A stretch of DNA of 64,000 nucleotides from contig OZ024745.1 of the NCBI GenBank assembly GCA_964016885.1, forward strand, positions 27,714,001 to 27,778,000. Direction: 5' to 3'. This document shows positions 29,444-42,115 of this stretch, one piece after another. Each line of letters begins with the position of its first letter. The first letter of the stretch is position 1. The position numbers and the translations under genes were made by a program. The notes under the pieces are model-generated. The model saw only the letters and a program-made list of their open reading frames with translations, did not search any database and was not told where the DNA came from. This DNA comes from Eledone cirrhosa (Eukaryota).

Positions 29444-29947
29444 GAAGGAACGTATTTCATATTACTACTACCTCCACTAACGTTGAGAACAAACTTGGTC
29501 ATTCCGACTGCTGCTAGCAATAGCTGTGGCTAGTTTGTCCTACCTCCTTTTGCCTCTATCTTTGCTACGGCCCTTGATAAACCTGTTCTACATCATCCAC
29601 TCTCATCCAGGGAACAGTTTTTGATAGCGCTAGTTTGTGATTTAAATTCAGGAATTTTATATTCTTTGAATGAAAAGAACCTTCTGACGAGAATCTTTCT
29701 TTGCAACGAAGGCCGTATGGTCTCCGTTTTATTTTTGGGATTCGAAACCGATCGGTAAAGGTAACTATAGTAGGCAAAGTCAATTTTTTTAAATTTATTT
29801 TGAAACTTTTTCATTATTTACTAAACCTTGTTTATATTTGTTCTGGCTCGTTAATTTATTAACCCGCCATTGAACCACACTGGCATTTGGTTGGACAATA
29901 CATGCGTACCTTGGCGCCTTGTGCGTGAAGGAACGTATTTCATATTA
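29444..29947 (+). mobile_element. Retrozyme-like element: 483-nt monomer with a 21-bp terminal direct repeat
   Basis: GAAGGAACGTATTTCATATTA at 29444-29464 and 29927-29947; (TA)n on both sides; one hammerhead inside. Confidence 0.75.
29679..29762 (+). ncRNA. Type I hammerhead ribozyme with long stem II
   Basis: ACCUU-CUGACGA-GAAUCUU...GGGAUUC-GAA-ACCGAUCGGU-A-AAGGU; helix III is a perfect 10-nt palindrome. Confidence 0.9.
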
Positions 29948-30127
29948 TATATATATATATATATATATATATATATATATATATATATATATATATATAT
30001 ATATATATATATATATATATATATATATATATATATATATATATATATATATATATATATATATATATATATATATATATATATATATATATATGCCTCT
30101 CTGTGTGTGTATGTGTGTGTGTGTGCA

Positions 30128-30390
30128 TGCGTGGCTTAGAAGTTAGGAGTGTCAAGCTTGGGATTGTAATTTCGTGAGTTCGATTCACGACAGCGCTGTG
30201 TCCTAAGGCAATACACTAATACACTGTTTTTCAGGTTGCTTCTTTCCATCTTACTGCCAAAAAGTTGTACCAGTAATTCAAATGCCTAACAGTATCTTGA
30301 CACACACTTTCACGGTGTGTATACGGCCGAAATATGTTATGGGTGCACGTGTCTCTGTAATGTTCCCTCACGTTAATTTCTCGAATAATC
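30128..30390 (+). mobile_element. Old tRNA-derived SINE, second family
   Basis: TGGCTTAGAAGTT A-box-like, GTTCGATTC B box, TGTGTCCTAAGGCAATACACT core; related minus-strand fragment at ~36500-36685. Confidence 0.55.
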
Positions 30391-32019
30391 GACGGCTATC
30401 CAACACTCACACCATATATACATATATATATAGAAGTAGTAACACTTCTACCAAACTCGTCCCATGGACTGAGAGTGCTTTATTACCTTCCAGTGTTCTA
30501 CCCATATATATATATATATATATATAGCTAGCTCGGCTAAAGCAAGTCGGCTTTTACTTATATAATTCCCCGACCATGGATTCTGGAACTCAAGATACAA
30601 CATCGGTAATTCCAAGACATTGGAATAACCAATGTTGGATGAATTTCAGTTCCTTCATCTGGAGGAGAATTCTTTCTTAGGAATAAGCATACATACCATG
30701 TCCTTGCTAGACGGTATGGTGAACAACGTGTTGCATTGCTGAATTACCATATGAATATATTTCACTTAATGTAATAGAACAAGACGACGGACTTATATTG
30801 ATGCTGGAAATAGCAGCCAAATAACAGTCTAAATCAGCTCAGCAATGATACAGCAGTCAATATTAATTTATAACTCTATAAAGTTACCTGTCTCTACATG
30901 TAAACATCTCAAGAAAACATATAAGATATATTAATAAATTATCAACCCATAGAAATAATGTTTCATTACTTGTCTGAGTTGATAACTTATTAATATATCT
31001 TATTCTTTCATTGAGATATTTACAGATTAGAGACAGCTAACTTCGAATATTATCAACATCCGATATAAAACTCACGAATACAATATTTTCGTGAGTTTTA
31101 TATATATATATATATATGTGTGTGAGTGTGTGTGTGTGTGTGTGTGTGTGTGTGTGTGTGTGTGTGTGTGTGTGTGTGTGTGTGTGTGTAGTACATTATA
31201 ATGTTATGGTACATTTAAAAAAATAGTACTACAATAGTGTAGATATGCATTTATTAATAAAATATACACGAAATAATGGCTAAAAAGATGCAGTATGATT
31301 ATTAGTGCGGTTGTTAATAATCAACGCAACTTCAAAACAAAAACTAGACATGTCACAACTTTACACATATATACCTTGTATATTTTAGTAAATGTCAATC
31401 ACAACTTGACATTGTTACACAACTCTCTTGTTTTGACAAAACAACTTAATTACAGACTTTCAACTGTAACCTCATTTTTGTTGTTTAGAGTACAGGTAAC
31501 CCTAATGAAATGGGATTCTGGTTTATGGCATTCCAGCTGTGTCTATCATATTATATTTCTGTTATATCCATTGTATTCGTGAGTTTTATATCGGATATTG
31601 ATAATATTCGATTCCTTTGCAAGAAAACAGCCTCGTTAGGTTATGTTTTTTAGACGACTATCGTCATCCGGTTGTTCTATCGGTGACAGAGAAACAATCG
31701 ACAAAGTTGTTTCTGGGTTACTGCCATTTGTCAAGATTGTGTATCTCTTTTCTGTCACATTCTCTGAATGTAGTTGACAGCCGAGAGAAAAGAGTACTCA
31801 ATACCGAAATAAAGTTTAAATATTCATTTATTAAGGCTAAATAATGAAATTCGTTGCTCTGGATTTGCGCCTGCTCCTTACAAGGTCATCAGCCAAGATG
31901 TTCTCATCTGATGACCCTATGGGAAGCAAGCGACACTCCTGAGCAACAAGACTTAATGAATGAATATATATATATATATATGTGTGTGTGTGTGTGTGTG
32001 TGTGTGTGTGTGTGTGTGT

Positions 32020-32622
32020 GTAATCTGAATTTTTCGAATATTAATAATAATATTCGATACGTTTGCAATCATGAAAACATCCTCTTTAAGGCATGTCAGT
32101 AAAATGACCCCGTCATTCTTGCTCTGTGTTGGCATATAAACAAAACGCCAGACACTAGTGTTAGTTATTTGAATATGACAAAGCAGTCCATTAGTCGCTC
32201 GTATACATGAAACTGACTGGCCCATCTGGCTAATCATTGGGTCTGCTAATATGCAGATCTGACTGATCAGGCAGTCTGCTACTATGCAAATCGGGCTGAT
32301 CAGGCAGTCTGCTACTATGCAAATCGGGCTGATCAGGCAGTCTGCTAATATGCAAATCGGGCTGATCAGCCACTGTCTATTTCAGAAAACAACATACATT
32401 TTCACTAGCTTTGAAATTTGGCAGGTAAGCAGTATATGGTACTGATGAAGGATAATCACCCAGAAACATTAGTATGCCAACACAAGAGCAAGAATTCTAC
32501 TGATATGGCTTAAAAAAGGTGTTTGTATAATTGCAAACGTATCGAATATTATTATTGATATTCGAAAAACTCAGATTACATTTATTGTATTCAGCCATGT
32601 AGAGCGATAAAACTATCTGTTT
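32020..32622 (+). mobile_element. Spaced fold-back insertion containing a minisatellite and a hammerhead
   Basis: Diverged arms ~32020-32136 / ~32473-32579, tail to 32622; 33-bp unit x4 at 32241-32372. Confidence 0.7.
32437..32479 (+). ncRNA. Minimal type I hammerhead
   Basis: UGGUA-CUGAUGA-aGGauaaucacCCa-GAA-ACauuaGU-A-UGCCA. Confidence 0.75.
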
Positions 32623-39989: not shown

Positions 39990-40670
39990 GGTGAATTGGC
40001 AGAGCCGTTAGAACGTCTGATAGAATGGCAGAGTCGTTAGAACGTCTGATAGAATGGCAGAGTCGTTAGAACGTCTGATAGAATGGCAGAGTCGTTAGAA
40101 CGTCTGATAGAATGGCGGATTCGTTAGAACGTCTGATAGAATGGCAGAGTCGTTAGAACGTCTGATAGAATGGCAGAGTCGTTAGAACGTCTGATAGAAT
40201 GGCAGAGTCGTTAGAACGTCTGGTAGAATGCTTTATGGTATTTGTCTCGGCTCTCTGCTCTCTGGGTTCAAATCCCGCCGAAGTCAAATGTACCAGACTA
40301 GTGCTGGGGTCGATTCTTCCTTTATATCTTGTTCCCACTTCCATTCTCTCACTTCTCTCGAAGAAATGTGCTGTATTCAGACCTGGAGAGGACATTGGCT
40401 CCACCAGGTTTAACAGCAAAATGCCCTTACTTAGTTACAGGACTAAGAAGTAAAAAGTAGAGGAGTCGATAAAAGTAGAAGGTCGATAAAAAAATACCAG
40501 CCCAGTACTGGGGTCGATTATTCCTCTATATCTCTTTCTCACTTACGTTCTCTCCATCTTGTATTCAAACCTAGAGAGGAGATGGGCTCCACCAGGTTTT
40601 AAAAATTGCCTTAGAAACGCCGTATGTCAATACGGAGACCCTACGACTCTCACAGGAGTTACGGGGCAAA
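39990..40670 (+). mobile_element. SINE with eight 29-bp head repeats and a duplicated 3' module
   Basis: TGGCAGAGTCGTTAGAACGTCTGATAGAA x8 at 39997-40228; B box GTTCAAATCC at ~40266. Confidence 0.85.
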
Positions 40671-41167
40671 GCGAAGCGAAACTTGTAATGTGTCGTCTTA
40701 AGGCAGTGTGATACAATAAAACCTAGATGTTAATTACTGTTCTTATTATACGAGATATAACGTTAATGAGAACCACTAAAGATTGTGTGCTACTATGGCT
40801 ACCCTAATTAGGCAATATATATGATTGAATCCGAAATACCAAATATTGTAACAGATTTCTATTGTTAATTTTCGCTATATTCTGGGAATTAAACATAGGG
40901 AGATAACTCACAATAGCAAATATAGAAACACTGATAGAATAAATAACAACTCGAATAACAGGGATAACACCATTAACATACTAATTGACCAATCCGGTAG
41001 CCCGATACCCGAGCTAATTCACAAACATCAAGGTCAACTGAAAGATATATCTCCCACTCCTACAAGATCTACTGCGTGAAGTCTTTTCAGGCATATGCTG
41101 GCCAGTCGCCCAAGTGAATAGCTCGTGTGACCTGTTGCAGATCAATGGATATTTACATCTTCTGTAG

Positions 41168-41240
41168 ATTTTATCTGAAGAGAACACATTGGCAGATGTT
41201 ATACAAAAGCCATATATCTTCGAAATACGTATGATAAAAT
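41168..41240 (+). ncRNA. Type I hammerhead with G at the cleavage position
   Basis: AUUUUAU-CUGAAGA-gaaCacauuggc..gccauauauCuuc-GAA-AUACGUAU-G-AUAAAAU. Confidence 0.72.
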
Positions 41241-41659
41241 AAATAGGGATGGACTAACATAACCGTCTTACTTATTTATTATTATAATAAAACTCCGGAT
41301 AAACATAAACGGTTGAGTGCTTAACCGTTGAGTTTTGTATAAGTCGGCAGATTTTCAATCAACCAATTTTCTCTGAATAAATACATATATATATATATAT
41401 ATATATATATCATAGATTGAGTTAGAAATTCAAAATAGTCTTTTACAATGAAATAGCTTAAGGAAGGGAATCTTTCCGAGCCGTGTAATACAATTGAATA
41501 TATGAGAGGGATGAACACCTATAGAACTATACATGTGGTCGAATTGTAAATGACCAAGTTAGCTAGGTTGAGAAAATATTAATTTAAAACAATATGGTTT
41601 GCTTGTCTCGATTTAAAGTAATAAATCAATAAAAATAAGAAACCTATATTGGGCAACTG

Positions 41660-42115
41660 CCTTATTAACTTGCTATTGAACCACACTGGCATACGGACTA
41701 TACTTCTATCCCTGTATGTATTAATTGCATATAGGACGCATACTTTTATTATTATTCTCCCCAATGGTAGAGACACCTTCGGTCGTTCGTATAGCTGCTA
41801 TTTTTAGTAGCATTAGATTGACCTGTCCAACGTGCTTTCGCCTTTGCACGCGTTCCTAACCATAACTGATTCATTCTGAGGCAGTTTGGTATGGCGCCAG
41901 TTTGTAATTTGAACTCGGGAATTTTATATTCTCCGAGAGAGAAAACCCTTCTGACGATGTTCTCTTTCTCAATGGAATTCCACTTGGAATGTCTATTTAT
42001 TTTTGATCTGAAACCGCGGTAAAGGCACATATAGTAAGTACAGTGAACTTTTGTGAATTTAATTATTTATTATTATTTTTTAAGATATTTTCTGTGTTTA
42101 CACTCTCTTGATTTT
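41660..42115 (+). mobile_element. Diverged, circularly permuted relative of 29444-29947
   Basis: Shares ATTGAACCACACTGGCAT, AGTTTGT.ATTT.AA.TC.GGAATTTTATATTCT and the hammerhead, in a permuted order. Confidence 0.65.
41947..42025 (+). ncRNA. Type I hammerhead with long irregular stem II
   Basis: CCUU-CUGACGA-(52 nt)-GAA-ACCGCGGU-A-AAGG. Confidence 0.7.

Follow-up and report, generated by a model that had tools for sequence, protein, structure and literature searches.

Tandem hammerhead retrozymes of Eledone cirrhosa carry a Penelope-type insertion signature with two fixed 3' ends

The window analysed here, a stretch of 64,000 nucleotides (nt) of Eledone cirrhosa contig OZ024745.1 (positions 27,714,001-27,778,000) from a genome of 3.0 Gb, is abundant in (TA)n and harbours two insertions of about one unit each of non-coding repeats that carry a predicted hammerhead ribozyme. 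These insertions, designated copy 1 and copy 2, belong to two related families, F1 and F2, in which arms, i.e. the uninterrupted runs of units making up an insertion, finish at one of two places in the unit, termed sites A and B. The features of the two copies are as follows.

29444..29947, + strand: copy 1, a single-armed F1 insertion with its end at site B, made up of one 483-nt unit and a further 21 nt
29679..29762, + strand: predicted type I hammerhead of copy 1, with predicted cut after A29757
29822..29837, + strand: site A in copy 1, unit position 394, internal there
29838..29947, + strand: tail of copy 1, from site A to site B, 108 nt, to unit position 19
29927..29947, + strand: terminal redundancy of copy 1, ending at site B, unit positions 19-24
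41662..42119, + strand: copy 2, a single-armed F2 insertion, 458 nt of the 474-nt unit
41736..41752, + strand: site B inside copy 2, at position 91 of the F2 unit and homologous to where copy 1 ends
41946..42026, + strand: predicted hammerhead of copy 2, with predicted cut after A42021

Copy 1 is bordered on both sides by (TA)n and contains only one hammerhead, and its bases 29444-29464 are identical to 29927-29947 (21/21), which bore out the terminal redundancy of period 483 described in an earlier note on this DNA. Copy 2 is truncated at its 5' side, whilst its 3' end lies at site A against (TA)n; its bounds, previously placed at 41660-42115, were corrected to 41662-42119. The two had been regarded as circularly permuted copies of one element. 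Alignment of copy 2 to a head-to-tail dimer of copy 1 did cross the unit junction, from unit position 413 (score 220.5 vs 182.5 for the monomer), and the junction-proximal 85 nt on the upstream side of copy 2 scored 50.5, with 37.5 the best of 2000 shuffles; a block within the tail of copy 1 is conserved in copy 2. The copies are nevertheless members of separate families, the 483-nt F1 and 474-nt F2 units being 62% identical.

A third family, F5 (locus L182:6010-6920), has a 467-nt unit that is 55% identical to F1, and a first look at the genome returned 1584, 3263 and 1904 candidates for F1, F2 and F5, respectively. Units across families measured 467-485 nt with a G+C content of 36-39%. Trimers of the unit have little coding potential, the longest sense ATG frame being 13 amino acids in F1 and 43 in F2, and the multimers of both families are devoid of an open reading frame (ORF) for a reverse transcriptase (RT) with a GIY-YIG endonuclease. 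Units were commonly arranged in tandem, with 71 of 169 F1 arms longer than one unit and 42 of 104 F1 loci having an arm with at least two cut sites. The insertion ends abut (TA)n, and a long terminal repeat (LTR) layout was not seen there. Contigs from two sequencing runs of unspecified kind also cover the unit, and one spans the end-to-start joint, as genomic tandems would; these contigs have no bearing on RNA.

By inspection, both copies contain a type I hammerhead with helix I, the CUGACGA core, a helix II carrying a long insert, then GAA, a helix III that is complementary to itself and a GUA triplet, helix I being ACCTT/AAGGT in copy 1. Helix III was found to be palindromic with a differing length, as had been claimed, with ACCGATCGGT in copy 1 (29747-29756) and ACCGCGGT in copy 2 (42013-42020); further families have ACCGTACGGT and ACCGCGCGGT, and that of F5 is ACCGTCGGT, the centre of which is unpaired. 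Helix II of copy 2 contains two U-U mismatches, from which its predicted ribozyme is likely impaired. Palindromic helices III of this sort are described as favouring dimeric ribozymes (PMC4209133). With a single ribozyme apiece, neither window copy could set a monomer free unaided. A pattern built to cover F1, F2 and related families matched 1352 genomic places. Rfam at gathering thresholds gave no match in the window. In a squid genome, 235 type I hammerheads have been listed without analysis (PMC6962438).

The 3' ends were analysed in 104 F1 loci, comprising 24 top-scoring loci (30 minus six overlapping duplicates), 60 taken from the 250 exact A-(TA)n junctions counted genome-wide and 20 from the 118 exact B-(TA)n junctions (patterned variants), with seven small other-family or secondary fragments removed before counting. 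The 169 arms ended at A in 89 cases and at B in 77, with two ending elsewhere and one at a locus edge; 85 of the A ends lay at exactly position 394, and the B ends at positions 19-24. An end served to select 80 of these loci, so that the evidence free of this bias consists of the top-scoring loci, in which all 42 arms finish at A or B, and of the second arms described below. The same two ends were found 107 nt apart in F2 (37 of 46 arms, 27 loci) and 104 nt apart in F5 (31 of 33 arms, 22 loci), three duplicates having been removed in each family, such that a tail length of 108, 107 and 104 nt has been kept in families that are 55-62% identical.

By contrast with these fixed 3' ends, the 5' ends of F1 arms are spread over the unit and none is dominant; an apparent 5' hot spot at unit position 168 was a reference artefact that vanished on re-extension. 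The apparent permutation of the window copies is fully accounted for by copy 1 stopping at B and copy 2 at A, with a length of about one unit in both. The earlier note had explained it by a retrozyme copied from different start points: a non-coding tandem hammerhead element with reverse transcription through the unit junction is supported by the arms exceeding one unit, but different start points are not supported in that form, as exactly two conserved ones were seen. Permutation alone fits a circle and a tandem linear RNA alike, and so cannot tell them apart.

The 3' ends lie in a (TA)n target, and a clear 14-nt duplication outside the TA runs was evident in one of 102 loci (L020), where it flanks the (TA)n runs on both sides as if these were added during insertion. 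De novo synthesis of (TA)n runs inside a duplication was rejected, as L020 was the only locus that fitted. Just right of copy 2, window positions 42150-42250 hold a short inverted repeat around a (TA)n run, with its 3' ends inward.

Many insertions consist of two arms whose truncated 5' ends meet, the 3' end of each pointing outward into (TA)n. Among the 104 F1 loci, 60 paired an A end with a B end (AB), one was AA and none BB, three had an unclassifiable end, one was complex and 39 were single, a few of the latter concealing a very short opposite arm. In the loci ascertained by one end, the second arm was of the opposite type in 42 of 43 cases (p=5e-12). Two-armed F2 loci included 10 AB, one BB and five with a damaged end, and those of F5 nine AB and none of the same type, giving AB pairing in 79 of 81 classifiable two-armed loci across the three families. 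AB arms are mostly long inverted repeats too, hence loss of palindromes cannot explain the pairing rule. The arms overlapped by 0-2 nt at 40 of 65 junctions, and in eight loci both arms exceeded one unit. Arm lengths were negatively correlated (rho -0.32, p=0.012), possibly as a sampling effect, and this was left uninterpreted.

L1 twin priming generates an inverted two-part insertion that is primed from both target strands. The retrozyme insertions differ in having two priming sites at fixed positions and arms with overlaps or gaps between them; tiling of the L1 type fits at most 11 of 61 AB loci and was rejected as a general cause.

An insertion of the terminus of a further element, N1, lies immediately to the left of copy 1, which sits in (TA)n beside it.

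29043..29388, no strand assigned: N1 terminus insertion, two-armed and inverted, left arm ending at B', right arm at A'

N1 and F1 have no homology beyond the ribozyme core. The N1 hammerhead-like motif has the same GAAACCGGUAAAGG end with a non-canonical core (UUGAAAA), and the layout of ribozyme motif, approximately 76 nt, A', 68-nt tail and B' follows the same order as in F1. Elsewhere, the N1 terminus flanks ORFs for an RT (E 2e-6, just under the Pfam cut-off) and a GIY-YIG domain (over the cut-off), and a CX4CxxC linker fits the Neptune/Nematis motif of PMC8557442. N1 is thus taken as a Penelope element, tentatively a Neptune-like one. Exact N1 junctions numbered 2964 and 3704 in the genome. 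On contig 1, pairing the first 86 A' places and the first 100 B' places as divergent neighbours no more than 7 kb apart gave 33 AB and one BB (p=1.7e-9), which brings AB pairing across the four families to 112 of 115 two-armed insertions. Many two-armed N1 insertions are about 340 bp, as if both arms reached one fixed RNA 5' end upstream of the ribozyme. Retrozymes are often found in a (TA)n run beside N1 ends (L061, L096, L147 and window copy 1), which suggests that these elements nest in shared targets.

The template was approached through the variants within F1 arrays. Unit divergence was 0.41% within an arm, 0.63% across the arms of a locus and 2.7% between loci. For alleles common to at least four loci, all units of the locus had the allele in 303 of 338 cases; of the 35 exceptions, 27 lay at a single homopolymer edge. 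Ten private and 15 rare alleles were likewise carried by every unit, eight of these spanning both arms, and 140 private changes were confined to a single unit. For instance, the two arms of L141 comprise 10 whole units that show no substitutions and one 2-nt indel, and L142 has eight units with one substitution, whilst six long arrays differ from one another by 3-57 substitutions. A single unit-specific variant is common to both members of 13 locus pairs, and no pair has two in common. At least one predicted cut site was traversed by 122 of 169 arms. An enrichment of 5' ends at the cut was weak in the sample and gone genome-wide, where 14 junctions lay at the cut vs 19 and 13 at two control places.

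The uniform haplotypes and the read-through of the cut argue for a template that is continuous across the cut and that went through a bottleneck of one unit. Both properties follow from a ligated circle, whereas an uncleaved homogeneous multimer needs a separate amplification step. A circular RNA intermediate, as the earlier note had proposed, thus draws on haplotype homogeneity and the lack of a stop at the cut site, and from these genomic patterns we lean towards a circular monomer RNA as the template. Circular templates have also been proposed in PMC4209133, from more-than-unit copying, and in PMC7229834. When folded, circular monomers were 57-61% paired with energies of -107 and -112 kcal/mol, vs -97 and -91 for 30 base shuffles; the shape was not rod-like, and the fold was not used as support.

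Taken as a whole, the F families are non-coding tandem hammerhead units that are probably mobilised in trans by a Penelope-type enzyme priming at A and B of a predicted circular RNA, of which Penelope-type two-site priming is the part held with high confidence. Starting from the observed anatomy, two ends, end pairing, uniform haplotypes and cut read-through, we infer the following series of events. An array with at least two ribozymes would be transcribed, self-cleave through a dimeric hammerhead and be closed by ligation into a circle of approximately 480 nt. A complex with GIY-YIG endonuclease and RT activities would bind the tail region and nick both strands of the (TA)n target, each target 3'-OH then priming at its own site, so that one complementary DNA (cDNA) would begin from A and the other from B. 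Each cDNA would roll round the circle for anything from 20 nt to about 10 units, and the two tips would be end-joined, or only one would survive to leave single arms such as those in the window, of which copy 1 would have been primed at B and copy 2, from a sister family, at A. A more specific version, in which one circular ribozyme RNA of 480 nt is bound by a Penelope-type enzyme dimer at two start sites, both obligatory and each excluding the other, and gives rise to two rolling-circle cDNAs, one per strand of a double-strand cut, is proposed tentatively, and we consider it somewhat more apt to be wrong than right. Several of these properties have precedent in PMC11167929. The Penelope-like protein of that study cuts both strands of AT-rich DNA and extends them, is expected to form a dimer, and starts at two internal RNA sites with a spacing equal to the genomic tail.

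A number of observations weigh against this scheme. In vitro, the Anolis element of PMC11167929 uses uncleaved RNA and its ribozyme mutants still insert, which fits a linear multimer; its start site is without strand difference and without homology to the target, whereas sites A and B both end in AU-alternating bases. The hammerhead structure is supported by 94.8% of cells being paired (at most 56.6% in slid controls), with four pairs changed on both sides, but the set consisted of nine hand-picked family representatives and the structure was drawn from copy 1, so that this covariation test leans in its favour. Minimum-energy folding of the ribozyme regions fails to give the hammerhead fold, and the folds obtained were not better than shuffles (z -0.11 and 0.63). 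The nearest unit was in the same locus for 31 of 66 units, tied for 25 and in another locus for 10, and young subfamilies are nearly identical across loci, so that homogeneity is weak evidence there. With regard to the enzyme, the similarity of N1 termini to families F1-F3 was not significant (z -1.0, 0.7 and 1.4), and no autonomous element homologous to F1-F3 was detected among 40 GIY-YIG loci.

These 40 loci were drawn from 150 listed GIY-YIG places, themselves from 10,596 candidates, and were searched with blastn and nhmmer; a profile of eight units retrieved no partner from them. The one strong match proved to be the retrozyme family F5 and not an autonomous partner. N1 is accordingly regarded as a layout comparator with the same pairing rule, a partner role being unsupported by the comparison of termini. 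Loci L184, L185, L190, L194 and L197 hold another GIY-YIG family with a compact hammerhead and a palindromic helix III (AAGUACUU), located approximately 56 nt before a (TA)n end; L194 is a 3.3-kb perfect inverted repeat.

The nearest competitor to the circular template retains two-site Penelope-type priming and has the enzyme read an uncleaved linear multimer transcribed from a homogeneous array that is already present. That no stop was seen at the cut fits this equally well, and the clustering of short two-armed N1 insertions near 340 bp resembles synthesis to a fixed linear 5' end; F1, however, has no dominant 5' end. From a linear multimer, arrays could only shrink with each generation, yet arms of about 10 units are found in separate lineages up to 57 substitutions apart, private alleles have swept all units and both arms, and there is no locus pair with two unit-specific variants in common. 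We therefore judge this reading unlikely, though it deserves to be taken seriously. Improbable, by comparison, is an RT that uses linear monomers released by self-cleavage and, on reaching the 5' end of one, switches to the 3' end of another. Such jumping would yield tandem units, and five B arms in the sample start at 313-314, beside the cut (jitter p 0.03-0.07), but this enrichment was not repeated genome-wide, and a mixed pool of monomers should make mosaic arrays where uniform haplotypes are seen.

It is very improbable that monomers insert and are later amplified or homogenised at the DNA level by unequal crossing-over or conversion, with the inverted arm produced by snap-back of the cDNA. 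Birth of satellites from element termini has been proposed (bioRxiv 10.64898/2026.07.22.740005), as has self-priming for head-to-head structures (PMC3846280), and breakpoints lay within 12 nt in six of 61 AB loci. However, 4.0 such loci are expected by chance (p=0.21), neither arm is copyable from the other in 12 of the 61, the second arm ending exactly at the other site is left unexplained by snap-back, and eight loci have both arms longer than one unit. Snap-back was rejected as a general cause. The earlier note had named as its own refutation a set of linear fragments of a long Penelope-like element with fixed ends. Fixed 3' ends, variable 5' ends and a ribozyme do resemble such termini, and the N1 fragments of this genome are exactly such termini, but the copies are ORF-less tandem units: F1 arms go on upstream as more 483-nt units or stop, the ATG frames in trimers are as short as given above, and none of the 40 GIY-YIG loci had an F1 or F2 match beside the ORF. 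We give hardly any credence to the copies being merely truncated ends of an autonomous element.

Retrozymes, their circular RNAs and a Penelope-like partner have been proposed previously (PMC7229834; bioRxiv 10.64898/2026.07.22.740005), and retrozymes, tails, inversions and the circle hypothesis are already known individually. Like the metazoan non-LTR retrozymes of these two sources, the F families have tandem, non-coding, low-GC units, each with a type I hammerhead, that range from monomers to multimers, and share the proposed circle template and Penelope-like partner. Their units of 467-485 nt exceed the 170-400 nt of the RNAs tested in PMC7229834, in agreement with the earlier claim of an unusual length, though they fall inside the 51-972 bp range of the bioRxiv source. 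The two fixed ends, the tail and the inverted second arms set them apart from metazoan retrozymes as described in the accessible text. In the searched literature (mostly open, supplements aside), no account of retrozymes with tails, inverted arms or paired ends was found, and no tally of the pairing rule.

Partial tandems, 5' truncation and a head-to-head inverted copy are shared with Neptune-clade Penelope-like elements (PMC8557442, PMC3846280, PMC11167929), as are a tail often at one end, microsatellite targets and a palindromic-helix-III hammerhead near the end. Unlike these elements, the F families are ORF-less, have a tail of 104-108 nt vs 30-40, consist of the repeat as the whole element, and show no pLTR-level homology to any of the autonomous families sampled. 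Chlamys elements such as MRC1 (PMC8557442) are likewise non-autonomous Penelope-like derivatives with multicopy head-to-tail insertions, but resemble autonomous families at the 3' end, and the Chlamys clade is said in that source to be without canonical hammerheads. The F families are probably non-LTR retrozymes, and they bear a Penelope-type insertion signature.

The enzyme that mobilises animal retrozymes, and the question of a circle template, have been argued in the sources consulted from co-occurrence, terminal similarity and RNA blots. The F families put the Penelope insertion signature onto ORF-less ribozyme units, and the qualitative statement of a tail often at one end becomes a near-strict one-A-one-B rule. 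This rule predicts that the two known RT start sites are divided between the two target strands within one event, and the very young, perfectly uniform arrays give defined RNA substrates. Should the two-site docking reading be true, these elements would obey the one-A-one-B rule in general, and their arrays would represent a genomic footprint of double rolling-circle reverse transcription in animals.

Several other repeats were evident in the window. Hammerhead-like CUGAUGA...GAAA motifs of other families occur at positions 8825, 10694-10724, 14127, 32442, 57729, 58574, 60274-60411 and 63833, some as opposite-strand pairs, and related motifs are present in L186 and L193. Related tandem repeats of 152 bp and 158 bp lie at 14551-15176 and 23295-23749, respectively. 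Positions 43355-54306 encode two tandem L1/Tx1-like long interspersed element copies with ORF1-like and endonuclease-RT frames, the second of which has an open frame of 1150 amino acids.

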